Assembly (NCBI GenBank): GCA_963763815.1
Contig: CAVXPS010000019.1
Coordinates: 15,713 to 79,712 of the forward strand
DNA: 64,000 nucleotides
From: an uncultured Actinomycetes bacterium
Lineage (GTDB): Bacteria; Actinomycetota; Thermoleophilia; Gaiellales; Gaiellaceae
Reading direction: 5' to 3'
Below, in pieces: positions 38,113 to 52,476 of this stretch. Under the pieces are notes generated by a model. It worked only from the letters and a program-made list of their open reading frames with translations. It had not been told where the DNA came from and ran no database searches. Numbering within the stretch: position 1 is the stretch's first letter; the number at the start of each line of letters is the position of its first letter. A program made the translations under genes and the position numbers.

Positions 38113-39381
38113 ATGCCGAGGTACCTCAAGTGGATCATCGCCGGCGTCGTCGTGCTCATCGTGCTGCTCGGCGGGCTCACGGGCGCGCTCTGGCTGGTGC
38201 AGCGCGACACCCCCGAAGGAGCGCTCGACACCGAGCTGACGGACGTGACCGTCACGACGGCGACCGCGCCCCCACCACCGCCGCCGCCGCCGCCGCCGAA
38301 GCCGGAGACGGTGAGCGACGAGCTCTGCTGGCCCTACTTCGGGGGCGATCCGCAGCGCTCGCTTTCGCGGGCCGAGGTCGCGATCGGCCCGCCGGTGCGC
38401 AGATATCGGTGGACGCGGGTGCTCGACAGCTACATCGAGTACCCGCCCAGCTACTGCGACGGCGTCCTCTACGTCAATAGCTATCGCGGGACGACGTACG
38501 CCATGAACTCGGAGACGGGGAAAGTGCTCTGGCGGCGGACGGAGGGCGGCACGAAGCCGTCGACGCCCGCGATCGATGGCCCGCGGCTCCTCGTCAGCTC
38601 GCTCGACGGCACCGTCACCGCGCTCGAACGCGAGAGCGGCAAGCAGCTGTGGCAGGTGCGGACGGAGGGAAGCGTCGAGTCGTCCCCGGTCGTGATCGAC
38701 GGCATCGCGTACTTCGGCGCGACGGACGGGCGGCTGTTCGCGGTGAGCTCGCGCACGGGCCGCATCCGCTGGGCGTACTCGAGCGGGGGAAAGATCACCG
38801 CAAGCCCTTCGATCTGGGGGCGGCGCGTGTGCGTCTCCAACTACGCGGGCGCCGTTTTCTGCCTCGACCGGTTCAGTGGCCGAGAGCTGTGGACGACCTA
38901 CGTCAGGCGCGACGCCTTCCGCTGGGAGAGCTTCTACGCGAGCGCCTCGACGGACGGCGAGCGAATCTATTCCGTCGCGCGCTCGGGCCGCGTCGTCGCG
39001 CTGGACGCGCAGAGTGGCTCGACGGTGTGGAGCGAGCGGGTGGGCGGCCTCGGGTACACGACTCCCGCGGTGGCGAACGGGCGGGTCTTCGTCGGCGGCT
39101 TCGACGGCCAGCTGCGCGCATACCGGGCAACGAGCGGGTCCGAGCTCTGGAGCACCTACGTGGGCGGCAAGATCCTCGGTGCCCCGTTCGTCGCCGGCAA
39201 CTACGTCTTCTTCTCGACGCTCGACGGGCGGACGTTCGCCGTGCGAGCCACTGACGGCAAGCTCTCGTGGCGCATTCCGATGGGGCGCTACTCGCCCGGC
39301 ATCGTGACCGAGCGGACGTACTACTTCTCGCTGAACGGCCGCGTCATCGCGTTCCGCGGCCGGGATGCTCCCCCGGCGTAG
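38113..39381 (+). CDS. Membrane-anchored PQQ-like beta-propeller repeat protein
   Basis: 422 aa with an N-terminal TM segment and a poly-Pro linker (APPPPPPPPPPKPE, encoded by a (CCG)n run at about 38268..38300). Repeated G.V.A.D..TG...W blades follow. Confidence 0.85.
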   Translation: MPRYLKWIIAGVVVLIVLLGGLTGALWLVQRDTPEGALDTELTDVTVTTATAPPPPPPPPPPKPETVSDELCWPYFGGDPQRSLSRAEVAIGPPVRRYRWTRVLDSYIEYPPSYCDGVLYVNSYRGTTYAMNSETGKVLWRRTEGGTKPSTPAIDGPRLLVSSLDGTVTALERESGKQLWQVRTEGSVESSPVVIDGIAYFGATDGRLFAVSSRTGRIRWAYSSGGKITASPSIWGRRVCVSNYAGAVFCLDRFSGRELWTTYVRRDAFRWESFYASASTDGERIYSVARSGRVVALDAQSGSTVWSERVGGLGYTTPAVANGRVFVGGFDGQLRAYRATSGSELWSTYVGGKILGAPFVAGNYVFFSTLDGRTFAVRATDGKLSWRIPMGRYSPGIVTERTYYFSLNGRVIAFRGRDAPPA

Positions 39382-40336
39382 ACGATTCACCGGTCACTAG
39401 GCGCGGATGGCGCCGGCGCCAGAGCGGCGAACGCTGCACGATCGCCGCAGCTGCGTCCCAGAGACCGATGCGGGCCCTGTAGGCCGCAAGGGAGACCGCC
39501 GCGCGTACCCGCGGGCGTGACGCAGCTCCGACCTCGTAGCCGAGCTCGTCGAGCAGGTCGCCCGCAACTGCCTCGAACGCGCGTGCGGCGTCACGGCTGA
39601 GCTCGATTCTCCAGTCGCGGAGACCGGCGGTCGGACGCAGCGCGAGCCGGCTGTGGTGCGGCTTGCCGGAGACGTCGACGTCGCCGGCGTACTCGAGCAT
39701 CGAGTCGTCGAACGGCAGCACGGCGAAGTCGCAGACGGCGCGGACCGTGCGATCCGGCTCCGCCGCGAGCTCCTCGTAGCGCACCTCCAGATATCGCGTG
39801 GGCCCGACGCGGCGACCGAGTGCGCGCGCGGAGCGAATCTCGGTGACCCACTGGCGCGCGAAGCCCGCGGGGCCCGAGGGGTGCGCCCAGGTCCGGGTGT
39901 AGGTGCCGGGAGGCATCTGCATGAAGGACACCGCCGCGTCCCTGCCGTCGCGGATGAGGTGGACGTAGACCGCGCTCGGGAACAGCCGCTCGAGCAGCGG
40001 AATGTGACGCATGTACATCGGCGTCTTGTCGCCCCAGCGGGGCTTGCCGTGCATGGCCGCGTACGTCTCGAACACGGACGAGATCGCTTCGGCCGTCGCC
40101 ATCCCGGGGCGCAGGGCGACGTCCTCCGGATCGAGCTTCCAGCGAACGAGCTCGTGGATTCGGCGCAGGTCGTCGCGGAAGGCAGCCAGATCGATTTCCC
40201 CACGGTGGCGGCGGGCGAGCAACGGGATGAAGCGCGACTCCTCCGGGATCGCGATCCCACTCGAGCGATCGAGGATCACCCGAAGCAGCGTCGTCCCGGA
40301 GCGATTGACGCCGAGGACGAAGAGCGGCGGGCTCAC
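39344..40336 (-). CDS. Sulfotransferase (PAPS-dependent family)
   Basis: The tail of track ORF 39344..41506: VSPPLFVLGVNRSGTTLLRVIL (PSB loop), WGDKTPMY, VHLIRDGRDAAVS, YEELAAEP. GTG 40336 forms a GTGA overlap with the upstream stop. Confidence 0.85.
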   Translation of the reverse strand: MSPPLFVLGVNRSGTTLLRVILDRSSGIAIPEESRFIPLLARRHRGEIDLAAFRDDLRRIHELVRWKLDPEDVALRPGMATAEAISSVFETYAAMHGKPRWGDKTPMYMRHIPLLERLFPSAVYVHLIRDGRDAAVSFMQMPPGTYTRTWAHPSGPAGFARQWVTEIRSARALGRRVGPTRYLEVRYEELAAEPDRTVRAVCDFAVLPFDDSMLEYAGDVDVSGKPHHSRLALRPTAGLRDWRIELSRDAARAFEAVAGDLLDELGYEVGAASRPRVRAAVSLAAYRARIGLWDAAAAIVQRSPLWRRRHPRLVTGESSTPGEHPGRGTR

Positions 40337-41271
40337 GGCTGCGGCGGCTCGGTGACCACCACCTCCGCTCGGTCCGCGAAGCGCCCGACCGAGACGTAGA
40401 CCACGTACGTGCCCGGCGTCTCCGGGGCGCGCAACACGAGGACGCGCTTGCGGAACTTGCCACGGCGGCCGTCGAAGAGCCAGCGGTAGACGTCGGCGTC
40501 GGTCGAGACGCCGATCCCGAAGCGCCTCCCGACGAAGGCCTCGACCCGATCGCGGACGAACTCGACATACCGCACGCGAACCGCGAGCGCGCGCGACCTC
40601 GCCGAGCGGTTGCCCGCGCGGTCGAACGCGCGCAGCCTGATCTCGTAGTCGCCGGGTCGTACCGGCTTGCCGTCGATCCGCCCGAACCACACGAGACGCC
40701 CCTCCGTCTCGCGGAACTTGCTGAGCACTCGCCTGCGCCCGTTCACGAGCATCATCGCCCGCGCCGGCTCGTCGATCTCGTACTCGGCCGTGACGCGATC
40801 GGCGTTGCCGTCGCCGTCGGGCGAGAAAACTCGCGGGAAGACCCTGCGAAGCGAGATCGTCGGCGCGGTCGTGTCGACACGGATGGGGTTGGGAAGCACG
40901 ATCGTGCGGCCATGCCGGCGCAGCCGCACGCGCGGCCGGTAGATCCCCTCCTTGACGACATTGCCCACGTCGTTTCGGCCGTCCCACACGTACGTGACGC
41001 GCCCCGCTTGCTCGCGCTTGTTCCGGACGAGCGTGCGTATCGAGCGCCGCTGCGAGTCGAGTAGGTCGACCGTCACGACCTGCCCCCCGCGAAGCCGGAA
41101 GGAGATCTCGGCGATATCGCGCGCGCACTCGCACACCGGCGAGAACACCCTGTCCACACGCGTGCCGGTGATCGGGCTCTTCTCGAGCTTCAGCCGCTCG
41201 GTGACCGCGAACGCCGCTGCCGTCGCGCCGAGCAGCGCGAGCACGATCAGGGTCTGCGGCAGGCGCTTCAA
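40333..41271 (-). CDS. Secreted protein with FlgD-Ig-like / Ig-fold repeats (hypothetical)
   Basis: 312 aa with a signal peptide (LIVLALLGATAAAFA). VTYVWDGRNDVGNVVKEGIYRPRV and GDYEIRLRAFDRAGN resemble FlgD-Ig-like beta-sandwich domains. Confidence 0.55.
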   Translation of the reverse strand: MKRLPQTLIVLALLGATAAAFAVTERLKLEKSPITGTRVDRVFSPVCECARDIAEISFRLRGGQVVTVDLLDSQRRSIRTLVRNKREQAGRVTYVWDGRNDVGNVVKEGIYRPRVRLRRHGRTIVLPNPIRVDTTAPTISLRRVFPRVFSPDGDGNADRVTAEYEIDEPARAMMLVNGRRRVLSKFRETEGRLVWFGRIDGKPVRPGDYEIRLRAFDRAGNRSARSRALAVRVRYVEFVRDRVEAFVGRRFGIGVSTDADVYRWLFDGRRGKFRKRVLVLRAPETPGTYVVYVSVGRFADRAEVVVTEPPQP

Positions 41272-41277
41272 GCGCGC

Positions 41278-41955
41278 TCAGGCGAGATCGAGGCCACGCA
41301 CGAGGACGAACGGCTCCGCGTGCTCGCGGCCGCAGGTAGTGCCGTGGAGCTCGGCGGCCGCCCGAATCGCACGCTCGCTGCGCGGGTGCGGATAGGGCCG
41401 CTGCTCGGTCTCGTAGTGCCCGAATGCCGCAAGCTTCCGCTCGAGCGTCGACGAGACGTCGACGTACCAGTTCGGGACGAACCAGTTGACCGGCGCGGGC
41501 GTCCACTCGGTGCTGGACGTCGGCGCGTACGTGAGCAGACGACGGACGGTCTGGCCGGGCAGCGGACGCGTCGCGACGGCGACGGAGTCGAAGAGCGCGC
41601 GGTGATCGCGGTTCACGTCCGGCTGCGGCGTGTAGACGACGGCAGGCTGGAACTCGCGCGCCTGCTCCTCGACGACGCGGTTGACCTCGACGTGCGCAAG
41701 CGTGTCGAGCCGCATGTCCGGTAGATCGAGGTGGACGTAGTCCTCCACACCGAGCTCGGCGGCGGCGCGGCGCGCCTCACCCTCCTTCTGCGCGCGCTTC
41801 TCCGCATCGCCCGGGTACTGGGTCGAGCTGCCGTCGGTCACGCACACGATCCGGACCGCGTCGCCGCGTTCGACCGCGTGCACGGCGATCGTCCCTCCCA
41901 TCCCGAGCACCTCGTCGTCGGGATGCGCCGCGAATACGAGGACGCGTTGGCTCAT
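41278..41955 (-). CDS. PIG-L family deacetylase
   Basis: Reads MSQRVLVFAAHPDDEVLGMGGT...VTDG...NRDH. I trimmed the start to ATG 41955. Confidence 0.88.
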   Translation of the reverse strand: MSQRVLVFAAHPDDEVLGMGGTIAVHAVERGDAVRIVCVTDGSSTQYPGDAEKRAQKEGEARRAAAELGVEDYVHLDLPDMRLDTLAHVEVNRVVEEQAREFQPAVVYTPQPDVNRDHRALFDSVAVATRPLPGQTVRRLLTYAPTSSTEWTPAPVNWFVPNWYVDVSSTLERKLAAFGHYETEQRPYPHPRSERAIRAAAELHGTTCGREHAEPFVLVRGLDLA

Positions 41956-42146
41956 CGGGCGACCTTGGTCGGCCGATGAGCGTGGAGGGGTGTGGGGAAC
42001 CGGGAGGTTCCCCACGCTTTCAGGAAGAAGGGGGCAGACTCAGCTCTCGCAAGACCGGAGTTCGCTTGCGCGAACTCCGGTCGCAGAAAGGCATGGGGAA
42101 ACATGGTTTCCCCCACCAACGCGAGCCGGAGGCGAGCGTGGCTCAT
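41950..42146 (-). repeat. Intercistronic multi-hairpin repeat, copy C (full length, archetype)
   Basis: Fills the gap from the formyltransferase stop to the PIG-L start. Hairpins lie at 42095..42113, 42054..42081 (ACCGGAGTTCGC-ttgc-GCGAACTCCGGT), 41994..42013 and 41950..41981 (containing the start codon). The 64-aa mini-ORF 41952..42146 has ATGA overlaps at both ends. By my manual alignment the core differs from copy B at only 2 positions over about 125 nt. Confidence 0.85.
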
Positions 42147-43033
42147 CCGAGCCTCGCTCCCACGGCGAGCTGGCCCGCGGTCTCGATCTCCTCGAGCAGG
42201 AGCGCGCCCTCACCGCAGGCGACGACCGGACCCTCCGCGTGCTCCGCGACGATCGTGCCGGCCGGCGCGTTCTCGGCGTCCTCGACGGGGCGCGCGCGCC
42301 AGACGACGACCTTCTCCTCGCCGAGGTACGTGAAGGCGCCGGGATAGGGCCGGGTCTGGGCGCGGACCCAGTCGTAGAGGTACGGCGCGCGCGTCTCCCA
42401 GTCGATGATGCCGTCTGCCGGCCGGCGACGGTGCCAGGAGCTCGCCCGCAGCGGATCCTGGGGAATACGCGGAGCCGTGCCGGCGACGATCTGCGGCACG
42501 TACTCGCGGATCAGGTCGAGGTGCGCAGCGGCGAGGCGCTCGAAGAGCGTGGTCGCCGTGTCGTCCGGCTCGATCGCGACCACCGCCTGTCCGACGATCG
42601 CACCGGAGTCGGCCGTCTCGTCGACGATCTCGAACAGCGTGACGCCCGTTCGCGCCAGGCCCGACAGCAGCGCCCACGGGATCGACGCGCGGCCGCGGTG
42701 TCGGGGGAGCAGCGTCGGGTGCATCCCGAACACGCCCTCGTGCGCGGCTGCGATGAACGGGTCGCGAACGAGCTGGTACCAGCCGACGACGAACACGAGC
42801 TCGGGATCGAGCTTGCGCAGCGCGTTCAGCGTCAGCTCCGAGTTGACGTCGTTCGTCTCGATGTAGTCCGCGCCGAACTCTCCCGCGACGTCGTCGAAGC
42901 GGCATCGGGCGGAGCGATCGATGGACGCGGTCTCCGGAAGCGTGACGACGCCGACGATCTCCGCCCCCGATTCTGCGGCGGCGACCAGGCAGTCGCGGCC
43001 GATGATGTCGTCGCTGACCCAGACCGTGCGCAT
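42143..43033 (-). CDS. Formyltransferase (Fmt/ArnA N-terminal-like; sugar N-formyltransferase candidate)
   Basis: 296 aa with VVGWYQLV, HPTLLPRHRGRASIPWAL (the SLLP/HxSLLPxxRG-type motif) and a C-terminal Fmt-like beta-barrel. Confidence 0.87.
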   Translation of the reverse strand: MRTVWVSDDIIGRDCLVAAAESGAEIVGVVTLPETASIDRSARCRFDDVAGEFGADYIETNDVNSELTLNALRKLDPELVFVVGWYQLVRDPFIAAAHEGVFGMHPTLLPRHRGRASIPWALLSGLARTGVTLFEIVDETADSGAIVGQAVVAIEPDDTATTLFERLAAAHLDLIREYVPQIVAGTAPRIPQDPLRASSWHRRRPADGIIDWETRAPYLYDWVRAQTRPYPGAFTYLGEEKVVVWRARPVEDAENAPAGTIVAEHAEGPVVACGEGALLLEEIETAGQLAVGARLG

Positions 43034-43045
43034 CGCGGAGCGATG

Positions 43046-43948
43046 CTAGTCGACGGCCGGAGGCAGTCTTTCGGTGCGGCTGCGCTGGATGCGGATCCAG
43101 CTATGGCGGCCGAGGTAGACGAGGAGTGCGACGAGCCCGGCCGTGAGGACGACGACGACGATCGTTCCAGCGAAGGGAACGTCGAGGAGCTTGATCCCCG
43201 CGAGACCGAGCACGCCCGCGAGCAGAAGCCGGAGCTTCTGCTCCGGGATCGCGAAGCTGACCCGACCCCCGATGAGGACGCCGGGAATCGAGCCCAGCAG
43301 GAGCCAGCCGAGAATCGCGAAGTCGACGTTCCCCGCGGCCCAGTGCGCAGCCCCGGCGACGTACAGGAGCACGGCCGCGTGGAAGATGTCCGTGCCGACC
43401 ACCTTGTGCGCCCGCAGCGGGAAGATGATCAGCAGCGTCAGCCCGAAGAAGACGCCGCTGCCGACCGACGTCAGGCCGACGATGAACCCGCCGAACGCGC
43501 CGATGAGGATCGCCGCGAGGCAGTCCCTCCTGCTCAGCCGCGCGGGCATTTCGCCGGTCGTAGCGGGACGGATCACGCTCTTCGCGACGAGCCCGGCCGC
43601 GCCGAACAGAAGCGCCCCTCCGAGTACCTGGCCCATCACCGACTCGACGTCGTCGCCGTAGCGGTCCGTCAACTGGACGGACACCCAGACGCCGACTAGC
43701 GACATCGGCGCCGAGCCGATGAGCATCCAGCCCGCGAGGCGCGCGCGCACGTTGCCCATCCGACGGTGCTGGGCGGCCCCGACCGTCTTGAACACGGCTC
43801 CGTGCGCGATGTCCGTGCCGATCGCGGTCGTCGGCGAGATCCCGAACACGAAGACGAGGATGGGGGTCATCAGCGACCCCCCACCCATGCCGGTCATCCC
43901 CACGAGCACGCCCGTGAGGAGACCGACGACGACGAACTCCCAGTCCAT
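43046..43948 (-). CDS. TauE/SafE family sulfite/sulfonate exporter-like membrane protein
   Basis: 300 aa with GMTGMGGGSLMTPILV and a second half-repeat GLTSVGSGVFFG, typical of the TauE/SafE (DUF81) 4+4 TM duplication. Confidence 0.87.
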   Translation of the reverse strand: MDWEFVVVGLLTGVLVGMTGMGGGSLMTPILVFVFGISPTTAIGTDIAHGAVFKTVGAAQHRRMGNVRARLAGWMLIGSAPMSLVGVWVSVQLTDRYGDDVESVMGQVLGGALLFGAAGLVAKSVIRPATTGEMPARLSRRDCLAAILIGAFGGFIVGLTSVGSGVFFGLTLLIIFPLRAHKVVGTDIFHAAVLLYVAGAAHWAAGNVDFAILGWLLLGSIPGVLIGGRVSFAIPEQKLRLLLAGVLGLAGIKLLDVPFAGTIVVVVLTAGLVALLVYLGRHSWIRIQRSRTERLPPAVD

Positions 43949-43959
43949 GCTATGCGCAA

Positions 43960-43990
43960 GACCGAAATCCGCTAAGCGCGGATTTCGGTC
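43960..43990 (-). promoter_or_regulatory. Perfect 13-bp stem hairpin 12 nt upstream of the TauE start
   Basis: GACCGAAATCCGC-taagc-GCGGATTTCGGTC. No Shine-Dalgarno sequence is visible between it and the ATG. Confidence 0.35.
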
Positions 43991-44008
43991 GCGCGAAGAC
44001 CCCTAAAG

Positions 44009-44027
44009 GCGGCCGCTTCGCGGCCGC
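44009..44027 (-). terminator. GC hairpin after sat (weak intrinsic-terminator candidate)
   Basis: GCGGCCGC-ttc-GCGGCCGC; on the minus strand it is followed by CTTTAGGGG. It lies 27 nt after the sat stop. Confidence 0.35.
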
Positions 44028-44053
44028 TCGGTTGGCGTGTCCACATCGCTCAC

Positions 44054-45190
44054 CTAGCCTCGGTAGGCGTCGATCAGAACCCGCGCGACGTCCGGTCGCG
44101 TGAACTCGACCGGCGGCACGTCGCCCGCTTCGAGCATCTCACGCACCTTCGTTCCCGACAGGAACACGCGATCCTCCGGCCCGTGCGGGCACGACTTCGT
44201 GCTCGCCATCGACCCGCAGACGTTGCACCAGAAGGTGTGCTCGAAGAACATCGGCTCGATGTCGAGCTCGTGCGGCGCGAACTCGTCGAAGATGAGCTGC
44301 GCGTCGTAGGTGCCGTAGTAGTCGCCGACGCCGGCGTGGTCGCGCCCGACGATGAAGTGCGAGCAGCCGTAGTTCTTGCGGCAGATCGCGTGCCAGATAG
44401 CCTCGCGCGGCCCCGCGTAGCGCATCGCTGCGGGGAACGCCGAGAGCAGGACGCGGTCCTCCGGGTAGTAACCGTCGAGCAGCGTGCGGTAGCACTCGAC
44501 GCGTACGTCGACCGGAACGTCGTCGGACTTCGTGTCGCCGACGAGCGGATGGACGAGCAGCCCGTCCACCGTCTCGAGAGCCACTTTCGTCAGGTACTCG
44601 TGGGCCCGGTGGATCGGGTTTCGGGTCTGGAACCCGACGACCCGCTTCCAGCCACGCTCGGCGATCGCCGCGCGTGTGTCCGCCGGATCGAGCGCGAGCT
44701 CAGGGAATGCCGGGGTCGCGCGCTCGAAGACGGTGACGCGGCCGGCGAGGTAGAGGGAGCGCTGCCCGTACAGGCGGGCGACGCCCGGATGCGCTTCGTC
44801 CTTCGTGCGGAAGCAGTTCTCCGCCTCGCGCTCCTTGTCGTACTCGTAGACCTCCTCGACGTCGAGCACCGCAACCGGTCGCCCGGACTCGTCGAGGAGC
44901 GCGACACGGTCACCCGTCGGCGCTGCATCGACGGCGAGGCAGACCGGAAGCGCCCACGGAAGGCCGCTGGTGAGATGCATGTCGTCGACGACGCGCTCGT
45001 AGTCCGCACGCCCCATGAAGCCCTCGAGCGGTGAGAGCGCGCCCGAGGCGAGCATGTCGAGGTCGGAGAGCTCGCGGGACGTCAGCTGGACGGTCTCGAG
45101 CGAATCGAGATCGCCCGGCCGCTCTCCCGTCCGGTCGACGAGCGAGCCGCCATGCGGTGCGATCAGGCGATCGGTGGCCGCGACCGTCAC
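44054..45190 (-). CDS. sat: Sulfate adenylyltransferase (ATP sulfurylase, homo-oligomeric Sat type)
   Basis: Contains VGFQTRNPIHRAHE, HPLVGDTKSDD and GRDHAGVG. GTG 45190 forms a GTGA overlap with the cysC stop. The N-terminal part of the track ORF is out-of-frame junk. Confidence 0.92.
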   Translation of the reverse strand: MTVAATDRLIAPHGGSLVDRTGERPGDLDSLETVQLTSRELSDLDMLASGALSPLEGFMGRADYERVVDDMHLTSGLPWALPVCLAVDAAPTGDRVALLDESGRPVAVLDVEEVYEYDKEREAENCFRTKDEAHPGVARLYGQRSLYLAGRVTVFERATPAFPELALDPADTRAAIAERGWKRVVGFQTRNPIHRAHEYLTKVALETVDGLLVHPLVGDTKSDDVPVDVRVECYRTLLDGYYPEDRVLLSAFPAAMRYAGPREAIWHAICRKNYGCSHFIVGRDHAGVGDYYGTYDAQLIFDEFAPHELDIEPMFFEHTFWCNVCGSMASTKSCPHGPEDRVFLSGTKVREMLEAGDVPPVEFTRPDVARVLIDAYRG

Positions 45191-45786
45191 GCCGACACCT
45201 TGGCCGGGACGAGCCCTAGCTCCTCGAGCCTCTCGAGCACGTACGCAGCAGATTCCTCGGGCGTGATCCCCTCTGTGTCCACGACGATCTCGGCCTGGGC
45301 GGGCGCCTCGTACGGGTCGTCCACGCCGGTGAAGCCCTTGATCTCGCCGGCGAAGGCCTTCGCGTAGAGCCCGTTCACATCCCGGCGGGCGCACTCTTCG
45401 AGTGACGTCCGCACGTGAATCTCGATAAACGGGCCATGCTCCTCGACAAGGGCCCGTGCGTTCTTCCGTGCCTGCTCGTATGGCGAGATCGCCGCCACGA
45501 TGACCGCGCCCCCGTGGCGGGTGACGCGCGAGGCCACCCAACCCAGGCGCTCGACGTGGGCATCGCGGTCTTCCTTCGAGAAGCCCAGGCCTTTCGAGAG
45601 GTGCGTGCGCACGGTGTCACCGTCGAGGTACTCGACGACGAGGCCGCGGCTGTCCATCTCGGGACCCACGTAATGCGCGATCGTCGTCTTTCCTGAGCCC
45701 GACAGGCCCGTGAACCAGAGCGTGAAGCCGCCGCCACGATCGGTCTCGGACTCGGGGTGCTCATGCGCATAGATGTGCTGACTCAT
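45187..45786 (-). CDS. cysC: Adenylyl-sulfate (APS) kinase
   Basis: Reads MSQHIY...FTLWFTGLSGSGKTTIA (P-loop), LDGDTVR, FSKEDRD, AAISPY. ATG 45786 forms an ATGA overlap with the cysH stop. Confidence 0.92.
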   Translation of the reverse strand: MSQHIYAHEHPESETDRGGGFTLWFTGLSGSGKTTIAHYVGPEMDSRGLVVEYLDGDTVRTHLSKGLGFSKEDRDAHVERLGWVASRVTRHGGAVIVAAISPYEQARKNARALVEEHGPFIEIHVRTSLEECARRDVNGLYAKAFAGEIKGFTGVDDPYEAPAQAEIVVDTEGITPEESAAYVLERLEELGLVPAKVSA

Positions 45787-46520
45787 GCCGTCCTTTCGAG
45801 TTTCGTGTCTTCGTGAATGCCGCACTCGAGCTTGTCGGAGCCCGCCCAGCGCCCCGCGCGCTCCTCCTCGTCCGGGTTCGTCGGGCGTGTACAGGGGATG
45901 CAGCCGATGGAACGGTACCCGGCTTCGTGCAGCGGGTTGAAGGGAATCTCGTTCACGTCGATGTAGGCCCAGACCCTCTTCTCGTCCCAGTCGGCGAGCG
46001 GATGGATCTTGAAGACGCCGTAGCGCTCGGACCACTCGATCTTCTGGGTGTCCGCGCGGCTCGGCGACTGGTCGCGCCGGATGCCGGAGATCCAGGCGTC
46101 GTACGGTGCAAGGGCGTTCACGAGCGGCTCGACCTTGCGGATGTGGCAGCAGCGGTCCGGATCCCGCTCCCAGAGGTTCGCGCCCTCCGCGCGGTGCTGC
46201 TCCGCGACCGTCGGGATGGCCGGCTGGATGAGCTTCAGCGCGTACCTGTCCACGAGCCGGTCGCGTGTCTCGTACGACTCGCGGAAGAACAGGTGTGTGT
46301 CGAGCTCCACCGTGTCCATGCGCAGGCCGAGGTCGGCGACCATGTGCACGAGCACGGACGACTGCTTCTGCCACGAGCACGTCAGGCAGAGCCGTGGCCA
46401 GAAGAACGAGTGCGCCCAGGCGATGAGCTCCTCGGCCGACATCGCCTCGAAGTCGAGGTCAGGAAGCCGGGGCGGGCTCGTCGACGCGGGAACCGCCGTG
46501 GTATTTCGTGCGACCGCCAC
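45783..46520 (-). CDS. cysH: Adenylylsulfate/phosphoadenylylsulfate reductase, Fe-S cluster type (CC...CxxC plus ECGIH)
   Basis: 245 aa with SWQKQSSVL, RCCHIRKVEPL, GIRRDQSPSR, SIGCIPCTRP and KLECGIH. The CC and CxxC pairs mark the [4Fe-4S] APS-reductase subgroup. Confidence 0.9.
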   Translation of the reverse strand: MAVARNTTAVPASTSPPRLPDLDFEAMSAEELIAWAHSFFWPRLCLTCSWQKQSSVLVHMVADLGLRMDTVELDTHLFFRESYETRDRLVDRYALKLIQPAIPTVAEQHRAEGANLWERDPDRCCHIRKVEPLVNALAPYDAWISGIRRDQSPSRADTQKIEWSERYGVFKIHPLADWDEKRVWAYIDVNEIPFNPLHEAGYRSIGCIPCTRPTNPDEEERAGRWAGSDKLECGIHEDTKLERTA

Positions 46521-47345
46521 CTATGCGTCCCCGCTGGTAAGGAGGGGGCTCGCGGGGGAACCATGGGTTCCTCCGCGTAAGAGCACCTCCTTGAGTGTGT
46601 CGGCGCGCAGGCCGAGCCGGAGCGTCTCGAGCGCGATGACCTCGTCCGGCGGGATGTTCCCGAGGTTCACCTCGGTCCCGAAGTGGCGGACGAACCACGC
46701 CTGCGAGCTCTTCGTCGGCGCCTCCCAGATGAGGTCGTGGAAGCTCAGCGAGTGCTCGATCTCGTCCACGAGCCCCGTGCGCAGCTCGCCCGTCGGGCGG
46801 TAGATCCCGGCCGTGCCGCCCTCACGGCCCTCGGCGATCACCTTCCAGGCGCCCGCGTCGAGCTCCTCGCGCATCCACTGCACCCACAGGTACGGCGCGA
46901 TGTTCACCTCGGAATCCTTCGAGCCGACCTCGGAGAGGACGACGAAGTCCCGCGCAAAGTCGGTGATCAGCTCGAGCTTCGCGTCGCGCGGGATCTCGAG
47001 CGTGCCGTCCGAGATCTCGACGTGCGAGAAGCGGTAGTGCTCGAGCCAGCGTTTGAAGTCATCCATCTTGCCCTGGCCGTAGACCGCCTCGAAGAGCGTC
47101 CCCCCGCAGACGACAGGAGTGTCGAACGAGCGGTAGAGGGCGATCTTCTTCTCGAGGTTGTTCGTGACGTAGCTCGTGCCCCAGCCGAGCTTCACGATGT
47201 CCACGTACTCCCCGGCCGTGTCGAACAGCCCCTCGATCTCCCGGAGGTTCAGGCCCTTGTCCATGACGTGGGTCAGGCCGCGGGAACGCGGCTTGCCCTC
47301 GCGCGTGGGCACATCGAGGAAGGAGTGGTCAAGAGAGTCGTGCAT
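46521..47345 (-). CDS. comA: (2R)-phospho-3-sulfolactate synthase (ComA family)
   Basis: Reads MHDSLDHSFLDVPTREGKPRSRGLTHVMDKGL...YVDIVKLGWGTSYV...VCGGTLFE...HVEISDGT...VLSEVGSKD. A GGAGGA RBS sits 5 nt before ATG 47345. The TAG stop abuts the cysH GTG. Confidence 0.88.
   Translation of the reverse strand: MHDSLDHSFLDVPTREGKPRSRGLTHVMDKGLNLREIEGLFDTAGEYVDIVKLGWGTSYVTNNLEKKIALYRSFDTPVVCGGTLFEAVYGQGKMDDFKRWLEHYRFSHVEISDGTLEIPRDAKLELITDFARDFVVLSEVGSKDSEVNIAPYLWVQWMREELDAGAWKVIAEGREGGTAGIYRPTGELRTGLVDEIEHSLSFHDLIWEAPTKSSQAWFVRHFGTEVNLGNIPPDEVIALETLRLGLRADTLKEVLLRGGTHGSPASPLLTSGDA
46541..46577 (-). repeat. Solo hairpin module related to the intercistronic repeat (copy D, partial)
   Basis: GGAGGGGGCTCGCGGGGGAACC-atg-GGTTCCTCC resembles the GGAGGGGTGTGGGGAACC-ggga-GGTTCCCC module of copies B and C. 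It lies between the conserved end of ComA and the cysH start, and is read through as the ComA C-terminal tail. Confidence 0.55.
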
Positions 47346-47934
47346 AGATGTCCTCCAGCTTCTGGCGGGCTCGTTCCTGCACGTCGCGGTAGAGCGAGTT
47401 GCCGTGCGCGTCGATCCCGACGGTGAGCGGGCCGAAGTCCTTGACGCGGAACTTCCAGAGGCACTCGGGCATGAGCTCCTCCCAGGCGACCTCCTCGATC
47501 TCCTCGATCTGCGTCGTCTCGAGCGCCGCGGCGCCGCCGACGATCGCGAAGTAGACCATCCCGAGACGGTGCATCGGCTCGATCGCCTCGTCCGGGAACC
47601 CGCCCTTGCCGCAGATCGCGCGGACGCCGTACTGCTCGCCGAGCGGCTCGGTGAAGCGCACCATGCGCGCGCTCGTCGTCGTCCCGATGCACATCTTCTC
47701 GTAGCGTCCCCTGCCTTCGGAGTCTGTGCCGACCTTGCGGACGTTCGGCGCCGTATGCAGGAGAAATGCACCGGAGAGGTCCATCGGCGGCTCGACGCCC
47801 TGGTCGAAGATGCGGATCTGTGTCCGGTCGCGGATCCCGATGATGTGGCCCTGGACGATGACCTCGTCGCCCGCGCGGAGCTTCATGATCTCGGCCGGAT
47901 CGGTGACGGGGAAGGTGACCTCGTGCGTCCCCAT
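47329..47934 (-). CDS. Fe-S hydro-lyase beta subunit (class I fumarase / tartrate dehydratase C-terminal-domain type)
   Basis: Reads MGTHEVTFPV...GDEVIVQGHIIGIRD...LLHTAPNV...TTSARM...ICGKGG...VYFAIVGGAAAL. ATG 47934 follows a GGAGG. Confidence 0.85.
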   Translation of the reverse strand: MGTHEVTFPVTDPAEIMKLRAGDEVIVQGHIIGIRDRTQIRIFDQGVEPPMDLSGAFLLHTAPNVRKVGTDSEGRGRYEKMCIGTTTSARMVRFTEPLGEQYGVRAICGKGGFPDEAIEPMHRLGMVYFAIVGGAAALETTQIEEIEEVAWEELMPECLWKFRVKDFGPLTVGIDAHGNSLYRDVQERARQKLEDIYARLS

Positions 47935-48830
47935 CACGCCTCCCGGTCGTAGTCGATCGAGCCGTCGGCGGAGACGTGCGCGGTTGCACGGCGCGCGGCC
48001 CAGCACTGGTAGTTCACGGCGACGGGGTTGAGCGTCATGTGCGTGTCCGCGTGCTCGACGTGGACGGAGAGGACTGTGACGTCGCCGCCGAGCCCCATCG
48101 GCCCGATGCCGGTCTCGTTCAACAGCTCGTAGAGCTCTTCCTCGAGCTGCGCGACGAGCGGATCAGGGTTCCGCGTGTCGACCGGCCGTGCGATCGCCTC
48201 CTTCGCGAGGTGCATCGCGTAGTCCGCCGACCCGCCGATCCCGACCCCGACGATTCCCGGCGGGCACGGCTTGCCGCCGGCGTCGACGATCGACTCCAGC
48301 ACGAACTTCTTGATCCCGGTCACGCCGTCGGCCGGGACACACATCTTGAGGAAGCTCATGTTCTCCGAGCCCGAGCCCTTGGGGACGCACTTCACGTCGA
48401 GCCCGTCCCAGTCGGGCACGAAGTCCCAGTGCACGATCGGCACGCGGAAGCCGACGTTCGGCCCCGTGTTCTCGCGGGTCAGCGTGTGGACGGTGTTCGA
48501 GCGCAACGGATGCTCGACGGTCGCGCGCTCGGTCCCGATCTTGAGCGACTCGTAGATCCGTGCGGGGTGGAGCGGGAAGCCCTCGCCGACGCGGCAGTAG
48601 TAGACCGGGATGCCCGTGTCCTGGCAGACGAGGTTCTTCTCGTCGTCGGCGATGACGACGTTGCGGTGGATCGTCTCGAGGACGCGCTTGCCGGTGACCG
48701 ACGTCTCGCGCTCGCGTGCGGCGGACAGGGCATCGCGCAGGTCCTGCGGGATGTCCTTCAGCGCCCAGACGTAGAGGTACGCGGCCGCGTCCTCGACCGC
48801 TCCCGCGATGTCCGTGACGGTGATGCTCAC
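47934..48830 (-). CDS. Fe-S hydro-lyase alpha subunit (class I fumarase / tartrate dehydratase N-terminal-domain type)
   Basis: Reads VSITVTDI...LVCQDTGIPVYY...KCVPKGSGSENMS...CPPGIVGVGIGGSAD. GTG 48830 forms a GTGA overlap with the flavoprotein stop. Confidence 0.85.
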   Translation of the reverse strand: MSITVTDIAGAVEDAAAYLYVWALKDIPQDLRDALSAARERETSVTGKRVLETIHRNVVIADDEKNLVCQDTGIPVYYCRVGEGFPLHPARIYESLKIGTERATVEHPLRSNTVHTLTRENTGPNVGFRVPIVHWDFVPDWDGLDVKCVPKGSGSENMSFLKMCVPADGVTGIKKFVLESIVDAGGKPCPPGIVGVGIGGSADYAMHLAKEAIARPVDTRNPDPLVAQLEEELYELLNETGIGPMGLGGDVTVLSVHVEHADTHMTLNPVAVNYQCWAARRATAHVSADGSIDYDREA

Positions 48831-50068
48831 GCCGTCGCCCTCGCGGCAGCGGCGCGCCCTGCGCGCCGGCCGAACACCGTGCACTCGAGGAGGGAGTTGC
48901 CCATCATGCGATTCCTTCCGTGCGTGCCGCCCGCGATCTCGCCGCAGGCGAAGACGCCTTCGAGAGTGGTCTCGGCGTGCTCGTCGATGACGAGGCCGCC
49001 GTTCTGGTAGTGGAGGACCGGGTACGTGAAGATCGGCTCGGCGAGTGGATCGATGCCGGCGCCGCGATAGCGGCGAAGCATGTACGGGAGGGAGATTGCG
49101 GCGTCCTCCGGCGCGATCCGCGTCGTGTCGAGGAGGACCGCCGGCCGGCCGTCCGGGGTCAGCACGCCCTTCCCCTTCTCCACCTCGTCGAAGATCGCCT
49201 GCGAGACCGCGTCGCGCGCGCCGAGCGAATCCGTGAACTCCTCTCCGTCGGCGTTCAGCAGAACCGCGCCGTAGGCACGGGTCGTCTCGGGGATCGAGTA
49301 GCCCTGCATGGTCGCCGGCCAGGCACCGCCGTTCGGGTGGTACTGGAGCGCGTCGAGGTCGCGCTCGGCCGCCCCCGCCTCGAGTGCGACGCGCGTCACC
49401 TCGCCGGTCGCGTTCGGATGGTTCGTGGAGAGCTCGCCGCGCGCTTTCGCCTCGCGGAAGCAGCGGCCGCCGGCTGCGAGCACGACGGCACTCGCGTCCA
49501 CGTCGGCGACGCCGTCCCTCGTCTCGAAGGTCGCGCGCCAGCCTGCCGGTGTCGGCGCGATCGCGGTCAGTCGGTGGTGCGAGAGCACCGTGCCGCCGCC
49601 GGCCTCGTACGCCTCGCGCAGCGATCTGGTGATCGCGTGTCCCGTCCGGTCGCCGACCTGAAGGAGGCGCTTGCGGGTCGCGCCGCCGCAGCGGGCAAGC
49701 CGGTAGCCGCCGCTACCGGAATCGCCTTGGCCATTCCGGCCATTGGACGTCTCCCGGGTGAACTCGACGCCGAGCTCCTCGAGCCAGTGGATCGCGGAGG
49801 GCGCCTCGCTGGTGAGGACCTCGACGAGCCGCGGGTTCGCCGTCTCGTGTGAGCTCCGCATGACGTCCTCGGCATGAATCTCGGGCGAGTCGTCCTCGCC
49901 GAAGGCCGCCTGGATGCCGCCCTGGGCCTTTGCGGAGTTGCACGCTTGAAGCGTCGTCTTCGTCGCGAGGCCGACCCTGGCGCCGGAGTGCTCGGCAGAG
50001 ACGGCGGCAGCGAGCCCGGCCGCACCGCTCCCGACCACGAGCACGTCGAACGAAGGCGTCTCGGCCAC
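48827..50068 (-). CDS. FAD-binding oxidoreductase of the fumarate reductase/succinate dehydrogenase flavoprotein family (short, soluble form)
   Basis: 413 aa with DVLVVGSGAAGLAAA, AQGGI, LQYHPNGG and VFACGEIAGGTHGRNRMMGNSLLECTVFGRRAG. It lacks the C-terminal helical domain, and no Fe-S or membrane subunit is nearby. Confidence 0.85.
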   Translation of the reverse strand: MAETPSFDVLVVGSGAAGLAAAVSAEHSGARVGLATKTTLQACNSAKAQGGIQAAFGEDDSPEIHAEDVMRSSHETANPRLVEVLTSEAPSAIHWLEELGVEFTRETSNGRNGQGDSGSGGYRLARCGGATRKRLLQVGDRTGHAITRSLREAYEAGGGTVLSHHRLTAIAPTPAGWRATFETRDGVADVDASAVVLAAGGRCFREAKARGELSTNHPNATGEVTRVALEAGAAERDLDALQYHPNGGAWPATMQGYSIPETTRAYGAVLLNADGEEFTDSLGARDAVSQAIFDEVEKGKGVLTPDGRPAVLLDTTRIAPEDAAISLPYMLRRYRGAGIDPLAEPIFTYPVLHYQNGGLVIDEHAETTLEGVFACGEIAGGTHGRNRMMGNSLLECTVFGRRAGRAAAARATA

Positions 50069-50084
50069 GGACGGATCCTACACC

Positions 50085-50122
50085 ACATCGTTATCTCTGT
50101 CATTACTGATCTTTATGTAACT
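50085..50122. promoter_or_regulatory. AT-rich divergent promoter region (sulfur operon / CBS gene)
   Basis: This is the only AT-rich patch in this part of the window: ACATCGTTATCTCTGTCATTACTGATCTTTATGTAACT. It lies between GTG 50068 (minus) and GTG 50173 (plus). I did not assign confident -35/-10 hexamers. Confidence 0.4.
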
Positions 50123-50172
50123 CGCGTGGCGCATCACCGCGCGATCCTCGGCAACTGGCTAGACTCGCGCCT

Positions 50173-50580
50173 GTGGCGACGCTCGCCGACATCGTCAAGC
50201 CGGACTTCCTGACCGTCGCGCCCGAAGACACGCTCGGCGAGGTGGCCGAGCGCATGACGCAGAAGAACGTCGGCGCCGTCGTCGTGAAGGATCACGGCCG
50301 GCTCATCGGCATCCTCACGGAGCGCGACATGCTGCGGGCGATGGCCGCCCGCGTCCACACGAGCGACGCCCGCGTGCGCATGTTCATGACGGAAGACCCC
50401 ATCACCGCGTCGGCCGACATGGACCTCGATGACGCCGCGCAGGTCATGCTCGACAACGGCTTCCGCCACCTTCCGGTCGTCGAGGGCGCCAACGTGCTCG
50501 GCGTCGTCAGCCTTCGGCGCGTCCTCGGCGGGCGCCGGCAGCCGTCCCCGGAGACCGCTCCGGCTCCCGAAGCCGCCTAA
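50173..50580 (+). CDS. CBS-domain pair protein
   Basis: 135 aa with two CBS motifs: VGAVVVKDHGRLIGILTERDMLRA and FRHLPVVEGANVLGVVSLRRVL. Confidence 0.85.
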   Translation: MATLADIVKPDFLTVAPEDTLGEVAERMTQKNVGAVVVKDHGRLIGILTERDMLRAMAARVHTSDARVRMFMTEDPITASADMDLDDAAQVMLDNGFRHLPVVEGANVLGVVSLRRVLGGRRQPSPETAPAPEAA

Positions 50581-50583
50581 CGG

Positions 50584-51543
50584 CTACCAGATCGAGCGCA
50601 ACAGAGCCTCGGCGTCGTCCACCGTGACCGGCCGCGGGTTCGCGCGCGCGCCCGGACGCCCGACGACCGCCTCGGCGACCTCGCGCAGATCGCCCTCCCG
50701 GATCTCGAATCCGCGGAGCCGGTCGAAGCCGCCGAGCCCGGCGAGCTCCTCGACGCGCGCAGGCGCGTCCTCCGTCTCGAGCGCGTCGGCGAGCTGAGCG
50801 ACCGCATCGGGCACGACCGGCTCGTTGAACCGGAGCGCAGGCGGCAGCGTCAGCGCATTCATCGCGCCGTGCGGGAGCCCGTAGCGCCCGCCGAGCGCCT
50901 GGGCGAGCGCGTGACCGAGGAAGAGCCCGCGTTCGCCGAGAGCGCGGCCCGCGTGCAGCGCTCCTTCGAGCAAAGCCGTCCGCGCCTCGAGGTCGCGTCC
51001 GTCGGCGACGACCTGCGGCAGGTGGCGCCCGATGAGACGTGCGCCGGTCGTCGCGTCCTCGAGCGGCCCCGCGTACAACGCTTCGGCGGCATGCGCAAGG
51101 GCGTTGAGCGCGGTGCCCACGGTCTCGGCGCGAGGGAGCTCGAGCGTGAGGCGGGGCTCGTAGACGACTCCGACGACGCGGGCACCCGTGCCGCCCGTCT
51201 TGAGCCTGCGCCCCTCGTCCCGCATGCCGAAGAAGGGCGTCCACTCGGCTCCGGCATATGTGGTCGGGACCGCGACCACCGGAAGGCCGGTTTCGGCCGA
51301 CACCGCCTTGCCGGTATCGATCGCGCTGCCGCCTCCTGCTGCGACCACGAGGTCTGCCTCCTGCGCGGCTGCGATCGCCGCCGTCACCGTCTCGACCGGG
51401 CTGTGCGGGCGTACGCCGGTATACCGCGAGGTCACCGGCACGTCGAGGTCGCCGAGCCGCTCCGACGTCACGAGCAGTGAGCGCGCGCTCCCCAGCTCGG
51501 CGAGAAGCGGCCCCACCTCGTCGAGTCCCCAGCGGACGATCAT
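50584..51543 (-). CDS. Iron-containing alcohol dehydrogenase family protein (maleylacetate-reductase-like)
   Basis: The tail of the giant track ORF 50584..53958: MIVRWGLDEVG..., AAGGGSAIDTGKAV, VPTTYAGAEWT, LAHAAEAL, HALAQALGGRYGLPHG. ATG 51543 overlaps the LysR stop. Confidence 0.8.
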   Translation of the reverse strand: MIVRWGLDEVGPLLAELGSARSLLVTSERLGDLDVPVTSRYTGVRPHSPVETVTAAIAAAQEADLVVAAGGGSAIDTGKAVSAETGLPVVAVPTTYAGAEWTPFFGMRDEGRRLKTGGTGARVVGVVYEPRLTLELPRAETVGTALNALAHAAEALYAGPLEDATTGARLIGRHLPQVVADGRDLEARTALLEGALHAGRALGERGLFLGHALAQALGGRYGLPHGAMNALTLPPALRFNEPVVPDAVAQLADALETEDAPARVEELAGLGGFDRLRGFEIREGDLREVAEAVVGRPGARANPRPVTVDDAEALLRSIW

Positions 51544-52436
51544 GACGCGAGCCGCGGCGTCGCGAACTCGATGAAGGCGTCGGCGACCCGCGAGCGCGAG
51601 CGCCCCGCCGCCGAGGCCAGCGAGATCTCCCGCGTCGCTTCGAGCCCCTGCACGCGCGCCTCGGTGAGCGTCCCTGCCTCGACCTCGGACTCGACCGCCG
51701 TGCGCGAGATGAACGTCACGCCGTAGCCCGCCTGGACGGCCCGGCGCACCGACTCCTGCAGCCCGAGCTCGAGCCGCACGTCCAGGTCGCGCAGCCGGAC
51801 GCCACGACGGCGCAGCGCATCCTCGACGATCTGCCTGACGCCCGCTCCCTCCTGCATGAGGATGAGTGGCTCGTCTCGAAGCTCGTCCAGCGTCACCGTC
51901 CGCCCCGCGAAGCGGTGGCCTGGCGGGCAGGCGAGGATCACCTCGTCGGAGAAGAACGGCTCGAAGCGCACGCCGCGGTGACGGCGCGACGCCCCGACGA
52001 TGCCGAGCTCGAGCTCCCGGGCGGCGACGCGCTCGACGACGGTGTGCGTGTCTGAGACGGTGAGCGACACGTGGACGCCCGGGTTCTCGCGCTGGAACTC
52101 GCCGAGCAGCAGCGGGACGACGATCGCCGCAGGCCCCGTGGACGCTCCCAGCACGAGGTTCCCGCGCAGCTCGCCCTCGACCGTGGCGGCGACGTCGGAC
52201 TCGATCTGCTCCTCGAGCGCGAGCAGCTTCTGGGCCCCGCGATAGAGCCTCCAGCCCGCCTCGGTCGGCTCCACCCGCCTGCCCGAGCGGTCGAGGAGCT
52301 GCGTCCCCAGCCGCTTCTCGAGCGAGCGCACCTGGAGCGACACCGCGGGCTGCGTGACGCCGAGACGCTCGGCCGCCTGCGAGAAGCTTCGGCGGTCGAC
52401 GACGGCGCAGAAGGCCGCGAGTTGGCGCGTGTCCAT
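51540..52436 (-). CDS. LysR family transcriptional regulator
   Basis: 298 aa beginning MDTRQLAAFCAVVDRRSFSQAAERLGVTQPAVSLQVRSLEKRLGTQLLDR, followed by a LysR substrate-binding domain. Confidence 0.92.
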   Translation of the reverse strand: MDTRQLAAFCAVVDRRSFSQAAERLGVTQPAVSLQVRSLEKRLGTQLLDRSGRRVEPTEAGWRLYRGAQKLLALEEQIESDVAATVEGELRGNLVLGASTGPAAIVVPLLLGEFQRENPGVHVSLTVSDTHTVVERVAARELELGIVGASRRHRGVRFEPFFSDEVILACPPGHRFAGRTVTLDELRDEPLILMQEGAGVRQIVEDALRRRGVRLRDLDVRLELGLQESVRRAVQAGYGVTFISRTAVESEVEAGTLTEARVQGLEATREISLASAAGRSRSRVADAFIEFATPRLAS

Positions 52437-52449
52437 AAGCGGAGCTTAT
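52435..52449. promoter_or_regulatory. LysR-type T-N11-A box
   Basis: ATAAGC-gga-GCTTAT is a perfect palindrome that abuts or overlaps the LysR ATG, in the 40-nt gap to the divergent DUF354 gene. Confidence 0.5.
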
Positions 52450-52476
52450 CCATGAGCAGCGCTGTAGGGTCAGGCC

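Follow-up and report, generated by a model that had tools for sequence, protein, structure and literature searches.

A cysH-cysC-sat block joined to the phosphosulfolactate synthase gene in soil Gaiellaceae, and the possible routing of its activated sulfate

Introduction

In Mycobacterium tuberculosis, CysDN-C, the adenosine 5'-phosphosulfate (APS) reductase CysH and the Stf sulfotransferases form a textbook hub of sulfate activation (PMC1175818, PMC8173546), and in Streptomyces coelicolor the genes cysI-SCO6101-cysH-cysC-cysD-cysN (SCO6102-6097) include the order cysH-cysC-sulfurylase (SCO6100-6097; PMC4340878). What determines the specificity of sulfonucleotide reductases for APS or for 3'-phosphoadenosine 5'-phosphosulfate (PAPS) was named as an open question by Carroll et al. 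2005. Here we describe three genes, cysH (sulfonucleotide reductase), cysC (APS kinase) and sat (ATP sulfurylase), which occupy positions 44054-46520 of a 64,000-nt stretch of DNA (hereafter the window; G+C about 70%) and directly follow comA, the gene of phosphosulfolactate synthase. The window belongs to a metagenome-assembled genome (MAG) of an uncultured soil member of the Gaiellaceae (Thermoleophilia) comprising 3.69 Mb in 19 contigs at 95% completeness; all coordinates refer to the window, and the whole gene string lies on its minus strand.

If the locus is read as a branched pathway, it resembles the M. tuberculosis hub in that APS would be made once and then shared by two enzymes, a [4Fe-4S] APS reductase and an APS kinase feeding sulfotransferases, and a PAPS-dependent sulfotransferase is indeed present alongside CysC. 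It differs from that hub in the fate of sulfite, which in M. tuberculosis goes to sulfite reductase and cysteine whereas here it would go to ComA, with no sulfite reductase found, and in the enzymes of activation, the sulfurylase being CysDN there and Sat here, and CysC being a domain of CysN there and a separate gene here. With S. coelicolor the locus shares the order cysH-cysC-sulfurylase, and in two relatives (G091 and G178) comA is followed downstream by precisely cysH-cysC-cysD-cysN; compared by gene order, however, the neighbour is sulfite reductase in S. coelicolor and ComA here. The adjacency of cysH and cysC is by itself ordinary and inherited.

Two systems that make sulfonates offer a further comparison. 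For Bacillus subtilis, the passage of PMC517825 that cites Graham 2002 names yitBA-yisZ and yitCD together as operons for phosphosulfolactate synthesis, in connection with spore sulfolactate. As far as that passage goes, the likeness lies in private sulfate activation and reduction genes beside ComA (YitD), which here are contiguous as comA-cysH-cysC-sat; the differences are that in B. subtilis a housekeeping cysH operon and a sulfite reductase exist besides, whereas the set described here is the only one, that the ComB phosphatase (YitC) is beside ComA there but the ComB-family gene is unlinked here, and that ComA has fumarase-like, FrdA-like and sulfotransferase genes joined to it here. The coenzyme M pathway of Xanthobacter autotrophicus (XcbA-E), in the portion of PMC9457059 that describes it, likewise opens with ComA (XcbB) adding sulfite to phosphoenolpyruvate, followed by elimination to sulfoacrylate. 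The elimination enzymes there belong to the aspartase/fumarase superfamily, whereas the candidate here is of the class I Fe-S hydro-lyase type; that portion describes no sat, cysC or cysH in the XcbA-E cluster, and none of the families given there for XcbC, XcbD and XcbE occurs among the Pfam matches of the present gene string.

Results and discussion

The cysH-cysC-sat block

The three genes are tightly packed. CysH (45783-46520, 245 aa) matches PF01507 (PAPS_reduct) over residues 44-213 (1.9e-44), and its GTG start is directly abutted by the TAG stop of comA. The stop of cysH and the start of cysC share an ATGA, as a preliminary description made from the sequence alone had observed; the stretch additionally holds sat, the start of which shares a GTGA with the stop of cysC. 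CysC (45187-45786, 199 aa) matches PF01583 (APS_kinase, 1.3e-57), passes TIGR00455 (190.8, cut-off 138.7) and has the Walker A motif GLSGSGKTT; it is intact, is coupled by an overlap at either end and shows 75-91% conservation across congeners. Sat (44054-45190, 378 aa) is an ATP sulfurylase of the homo-oligomeric type with PUA_2 and ATP-sulfurylase domains (2.4e-96), passes both TIGR00339 (414.1, cut-off 322.95) and NF003166 (525.6, cut-off 387), and contains the motifs QTRNPxHRAH and GRDHAG. Profile searches of the whole genome returned one Sat, one CysC and one gene of the PAPS_reduct family, namely this CysH, and no CysD was found in it by profile search or tblastn.

Transcript data from soil give weak evidence for an operon: RNA contigs from four libraries, at least 90% alike, cover the stretch from sat through the flavoprotein gene that heads the string, with contig coverage far above that of the stretch from tauE to the sulfotransferase gene. 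Genes cannot be ranked by contig depth, those of lower conservation attract fewer relatives, DNA may have been carried over, and no co-transcription is claimed from this coverage.

CysH carries the cysteines C123 and C124 (DRCCHIRK) and C207 and C210 (GCIPCT) in the arrangement CC-X~80-CXXC, the defining motif of bacterial APS reductases (PMC1175818; 'group b' of Carroll 2005), together with RAGRW and ECGIH, the latter representing the catalytic-cysteine motif, in agreement with the C-terminal motifs R(S/E/A)GR(W/F) and ECG(L/I)H defined for APS reductases in PMC8173546. These Fe-S cysteines and C-terminal motifs align with those of the [4Fe-4S] APS reductases of M. tuberculosis and Pseudomonas aeruginosa. 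The best match among solved structures is the M. tuberculosis enzyme (7LHR, 8.5e-40), followed by that of P. aeruginosa (2GOY, 3.5e-34), with cluster-less PAPS reductases ranking behind, and the generic cysH models NF002537 (243.6, cut-off 154) and TIGR00434 are exceeded as well. Judged by these motifs, CysH is a sulfonucleotide reductase of the [4Fe-4S] type, as had been proposed from the CC, CxxC and ECGIH motifs, and it would be expected to take APS rather than PAPS.

Probable direction of sulfite to ComA

The arm leading from CysH through sulfite to ComA is strongly supported. No sulfite reductase (NIR_SIR) was found in the source genome, at its completeness of 95%, by profile search or by tblastn with the enzyme of a congener, and neither sulfite reductase nor cysK lies inside the 64-kb window; three CysK/CysM-like genes are present in the genome. 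A comparison of CysH, CysC, ComA, sulfite reductase and sulfotransferases among 36 congeners gave ComA in 32, CysH in 33, CysC in 31 and sulfotransferases in 34, with sulfite reductase in six. The 30 congeners without it include assemblies of three to six contigs that are 92-96% complete, and in five of the six that have it, another CysH of a different kind was observed directly beside it.

The CysH genes recovered from the order fall into three groups, each of which keeps one partner. Group A, a clade of its own to which the CysH of the window belongs, adjoins ComA in 69 of 71 loci; group B adjoins CysD and CysN in all eight of its loci; and group C, with the sequence GRWWWE as in the Pseudomonas enzyme, adjoins sulfite reductase in 10/10. 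The Fe-S cysteines are present throughout, except in a few sequences and in the cluster-less enzymes of a sister genus described below. Most of these loci were collected via ComA, and an unbiased search for CysH across the genomes gave the same picture; the ComA-alignment search for related loci reached Gaiellales MAGs only and no distant named genomes such as Bacillus. Since the CysH groups each keep one partner, and that of group A is ComA, sulfite appears to go to ComA and not to sulfide, and since the genome lacks a sulfite reductase, the operon would serve the synthesis of sulfonates and sulfate esters and not of cysteine. Both points had been anticipated in the preliminary description, which argued from the window that sulfite passes to ComA and that this is not an assimilatory cys operon, and both are borne out at the level of the genome. 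The sulfonate and sulfate-ester products are probably destined for an envelope glycoconjugate.

The P-loop of group A, LTCSWQKQSS in the window, lacks at KQSS the acidic residue found there in the enzymes of P. aeruginosa (ED) and M. tuberculosis (AD) and in groups B (EE) and C (DG). Lysine or arginine (K or R) occupies the site in all 63 clusters with adjacent CysC, and the site resembles that of the PAPS reductases of Escherichia coli (IQA) and yeast (LTG). We assume that the bispecific CysH of B. subtilis has an acidic residue at this site too. KQSS was considered as a substrate marker and retained as an observation only, a literature search having given no link of the site to the 3'-phosphate.

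The left flank of a congener's sulfite-reductase locus maps inside a 627-kb contig of the source genome, with no sulfite reductase adjoining; the two flanks map to different contigs here, and only the left one is informative, so that this is not a clean test of deletion. One of the CysK/CysM-like genes (C16:311167-312027, L062) adjoins the stretch that matches this left flank, and a sulfite reductase-CysH locus may have been lost from beside this cysteine synthase gene.

Sulfotransferases and the PAPS arm

The last gene of the string (39344-40336) encodes an intact PAPS-type sulfotransferase with a full-length match to PF13469 (Sulfotransfer_3, 3.7e-41). Its nearest solved relatives, the sulfotransferase domain of a polyketide synthase (4GOX), TPST1/2 and the CurM sulfotransferase, are PAPS-dependent, and it is likely the consumer of the PAPS made by CysC; a sulfotransferase at the end of the cluster is present in about half of the related loci. 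Two PAPS-type sulfotransferases had originally been counted in the window. The second (32493-33417, plus strand), at the end of a glycan operon, is frameshifted in the assembly and contains an in-frame stop: of the ortholog of a congener (G005), residues 13-248 align with frame 1 and residues 235-318 with frame 2, with the switch near 33200 and a C-terminal part that is only 42% identical. It is either a real pseudogene or an error of the MAG assembly. Further sulfotransferase matches lie on contig C17 of the source genome.

The co-occurrence of CysC and sulfotransferases was tallied in 151 genomes, each at least 85% complete, which include one unpublished genome (G073), not relied on for any individual claim, and are mutually related and not independent. 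Both were found in 98 genomes, CysC alone in 21, a sulfotransferase alone in one and neither in 31; CysC is thus present in 98 of the 99 sulfotransferase-bearing genomes, and no sulfotransferase was matched in 31 of the 32 that lack CysC. The cluster of G061 and G062 consists of ComA-TauE-CysC-sulfotransferase, cysH-cysD-cysN lying elsewhere, and in G061 cysC overlaps the start of the sulfotransferase gene. Genomes of family f4 have CysC and sulfotransferases, without ComA and with no clear CysH. A PAPS arm from CysC to the sulfotransferases is plausible on these grounds, and CysC may exist for the sulfotransferases.

Some individual cases are recorded here. The sole sulfotransferase-bearing genome without CysC, G088 of genus g21 (95% complete), has four Sulfotransfer_3 matches and no CysC or CysH match. 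Around CysC in family f4 nothing was found but a radical SAM gene and the genes of an M23 peptidase and a methyltransferase. In G042 (family f3; L078:8766-12019) the CysC-Sat pair is separated from ComA-CysH and has a hexapeptide acyltransferase and a GT2 glycosyltransferase as neighbours; a sulfotransferase could be recognised neither near the pair nor elsewhere in that genome, and one 260-aa protein nearby has no Pfam match. In the source genome, an Inositol_P/CysQ-like gene (C17:415848-417163; L069, L004) is adjacent to one whose APS-kinase-like P-loop match is weak (20.6 bits); the pair may represent the context of a phosphatase for PAP.

Cluster-less CysH in a sister genus

In the sister genus g17, the ComA-linked CysH lacks all four Fe-S cysteines, the corresponding sites reading PDLYLxxAKV and SIGDTHST, and keeps ECGLH. 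Such genes lie at L178:9158-9823, L179:9603-10289 and L180:8928-9596, and also in L171 and L172. No APS kinase was found, by profile search or protein query, in three g17 genomes with this enzyme, which are 96-97% complete. By sequence the g17 protein looks like a bacterial cluster-less APS reductase, comparable to moss APR-B (PDB 4BWV).

The g17 operons follow the order flavoprotein-FumAB-ComA-CysH-[CysC]-CysD-CysN-TauE, and those of L171 and L172 are otherwise identical to those of L178-L180, the difference being the presence of cysC. Whether compared within one type of operon, with or without cysC, or across the two, their CysH proteins share 73-80% identity. Here cysC has been gained or lost naturally within a single genus.

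Where the pathway divides

In the mechanism that we consider, Sat would make APS from sulfate, probably imported via the adjacent TauE-family permease, and the [4Fe-4S]-type CysH would turn the activated sulfate into sulfite. ComA would add sulfite to phosphoenolpyruvate to give phosphosulfolactate, which the fumarase-like and fumarate-reductase-like enzymes may convert to a C3 sulfonate. A share of the APS would be phosphorylated by CysC, giving PAPS for sulfotransferases that depend on it, one of which ends the same string. The fork would lie at APS if CysH takes APS and not PAPS, and we incline, with limited confidence, to this position. Use of APS is favoured by three genomes of the same family (G149, G185 and G119) that have ComA-CysH-CysD-CysN and in which no APS kinase was found by profile search or protein query.

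Several observations weigh against a fork at APS. CysH stays below the cut-off of the APS_reductase model TIGR02055 (204.6 against 235.3), as it does below that of the PAPS_reductase model TIGR02057 (174.6 against 254.2). The Fe-S CysH of B. subtilis reduces both APS and PAPS (PMC1175818), and the S. coelicolor genes, with the same order, have been interpreted as a PAPS route (PMC4340878). Group A CysH was seen in none of the 32 CysC-less genomes sampled, and cysC separates cysH from the sulfurylase (Sat or CysDN) wherever cysH shares a ComA operon with Sat or belongs to group A. It is kept in that place in G123, G166 and G178, with a group A enzyme, and in G091 and G191, with a cluster-less one, and none of these five has a Sulfotransfer_3 match at E<=0.01. 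Four f3 genomes likewise combine group A CysH and a CysC-Sat pair with no match to Sulfotransfer_1 or Sulfotransfer_3, and 21 of the 119 CysC-bearing genomes in the tally have no sulfotransferase match at E<=1e-8. The g17 relatives have a CysH without the Fe-S cysteines and yet no APS kinase; because these enzymes work without CysC although all four cysteines are missing, the rule that leads from motif to substrate is leaky in this lineage. Finally, the source genome is a MAG of 19 contigs, in which the absence of a gene is not proof. The preliminary description had read a branch at APS from the juxtaposition of an Fe-S type cysH and cysC, and this step is not established, given the ordinary actinobacterial gene order, the bispecific B. 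subtilis enzyme, the constant company of CysC with group A and the retention of CysC where no sulfotransferase was detected.

The same observations can be read as a linear or dual route, in which CysH is bispecific or prefers PAPS, sulfate passes through APS and PAPS to sulfite and ComA, the sulfotransferases tap the same PAPS and any fork lies at PAPS. The fixed and translationally coupled cysH-cysC-sulfurylase block, the lack of any group A CysH without CysC, the clusters that retain CysC in genomes without a detectable sulfotransferase and the bispecific enzyme of B. subtilis all suit such a route, as does, as an observation only, the KQSS P-loop resembling those of the E. coli and yeast PAPS reductases. 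So does the naming of the B. subtilis yitBA-yisZ genes together with yitCD, in the passage mentioned in the Introduction, yisZ presumably being a paralogue of the APS kinase gene. We nevertheless regard it as rather unlikely. CysH has kept its four Fe-S cysteines, and a cluster site put into a PAPS reductase raised APS reduction about 1000-fold, as stated in the part of bioRxiv 10.64898/2026.09.04.749436 that cites Bhave 2012; operons of the same family supply ComA with sulfite without an APS kinase; CysC stays with the sulfotransferase where cysH lies elsewhere (G061 and G062); and the co-inheritance of cysH and cysC is explicable by physical linkage alone. That CysC is instead a passenger of the inherited actinobacterial block, of minor importance for both arms and at most pulling the unfavourable Sat reaction or buffering APS, would accord with the identical order in S. 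coelicolor, with the g17 operons that are otherwise the same with and without cysC, and with the 21 CysC-bearing genomes that lack a sulfotransferase match, but it is improbable in view of the 98 of 99 sulfotransferase-bearing genomes that keep CysC, of its intact, doubly overlapping and conserved gene, and of the overlap between cysC and the sulfotransferase gene in G061.

An ordinary assimilatory operon, with a sulfite reductase that escaped notice through a gap in the assembly or through an unfamiliar type, and with ComA taking a side stream only, is in our view very improbable. The 19 contigs and 95% completeness of the MAG, the three CysK/CysM-like genes and the fact that this is the sole sulfate-activation set of the genome speak in its favour; against it stand the negative NIR_SIR searches by profile and tblastn, the 30 congeners that also lack the enzyme, well-assembled genomes included, the separate CysH group that accompanies sulfite reductase where it does occur, and the left-flank stretch inside the 627-kb contig with no sulfite reductase beside it. 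An only set had initially been taken as a mark of housekeeping that would count against a branch. A separate set was sought in the genome and none was found, so that the single Sat, CysC and CysH are formally that only set; the model of a fork at APS is not refuted by this, because the genome lacks a sulfite reductase.

Implications for the genus

The unusual part of the locus is the combination of a missing sulfite reductase and a CysH paralogue specific to ComA; the set also differs from the known systems by its fusion to fumarase-like, FrdA-like and sulfotransferase genes. The results can be joined into a single reading, put forward tentatively as a possibility that falls somewhat short of probable. 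Most members of this genus, which is abundant in soil, would reduce sulfate to sulfite only, pass it from group A CysH to ComA, take up sulfate for decoration of the envelope with sulfonates and sulfate esters and not for cysteine, and need external reduced sulfur, while the same family would hold CysH enzymes that lack all four Fe-S cysteines and work without an APS kinase as counterparts of moss APR-B.

If reduction does stop at sulfite, a widespread group of soil actinobacteria uses sulfate for carbon-sulfur and sulfate-ester chemistry at its surface and depends on reduced sulfur from outside, which would have consequences for the sulfur cycle in soil and for efforts to bring these bacteria into culture. 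The three partner-specific CysH groups, together with the cluster-less CysH that occurs without APS kinase, constitute a natural test set for APS/PAPS specificity.

The surrounding gene string

The block is part of a string of about 12 genes that extends over about 10.7 kb, from 50068 down to 39344, in the order flavoprotein, fumarase-like alpha and beta, ComA, CysH, CysC, Sat, a 105-nt gap with a hairpin, TauE permease, formyltransferase, a mobile hairpin repeat, PIG-L, FlgD_ig protein and Sulfotransfer_3. Directly upstream of the first gene, a sigma-70-like promoter match (50075-50103, minus strand; a match to the consensus only) was the single site in a scan of 14 kb, in which 0.4 matches were expected; it counts in favour of an operon. 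The first gene encodes a short FrdA/SdhA/NadB-like flavoprotein (48827-50068; PF00890, 7e-63) that remains under every NCBIfam cut-off. It is followed by a class I fumarase/tartrate-dehydratase-like Fe-S hydro-lyase (47329-48884) with an alpha part at 47934-48884 (PF05681, 2.4e-91) and a beta part at about 47329-47934 (PF05683, 2.5e-26); fumarase-like genes upstream of comA are conserved in relatives. ComA itself occupies 46521-47345 (PF02679, 1.6e-85).

Downstream of sat, the TauE/SafE-family permease gene (43046-43948; PF01925, 1.8e-41) probably encodes the importer of sulfate; in relatives, TauE-family genes also adjoin cysH-cysDN modules without comA alongside. Further genes encode an Fmt/ArnA-like formyltransferase (42143-43033; PF00551 and PF02911), a PIG-L family de-N-acetylase (41278-42015; PF02585) and a secreted protein with an FlgD_ig domain (40333-41271; PF13860), the last conserved downstream of the cluster.

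A search of 38500-52600 against Rfam gave no match at E<=0.1, and a terminator scan returned nothing above chance. The gap between sat and tauE (43949-44053) folds at -59.7 kcal/mol (z = -3.4) and contains a perfect 13-bp hairpin (43960-43990, minus strand), a module of a local hairpin-repeat family. The flanks of this hairpin match those of the module at 42048-42084, and the changes in the stem are compensatory, which makes it a member of a local mobile hairpin-repeat family.

The only gene of the ComB family (PF04029) in the source genome lies on another contig (C11:186808-187422, L181), far from the ComA operon, and the family is also present in control genomes without ComA. Two genomes of family f5, G048 (L032/L033) and G044 (L034/L035), have two ComA genes each, one with the flavoprotein and fumarase-like genes and the other accompanied by CysH-CysC-Sat-TauE; each half of the operon can occur on its own.

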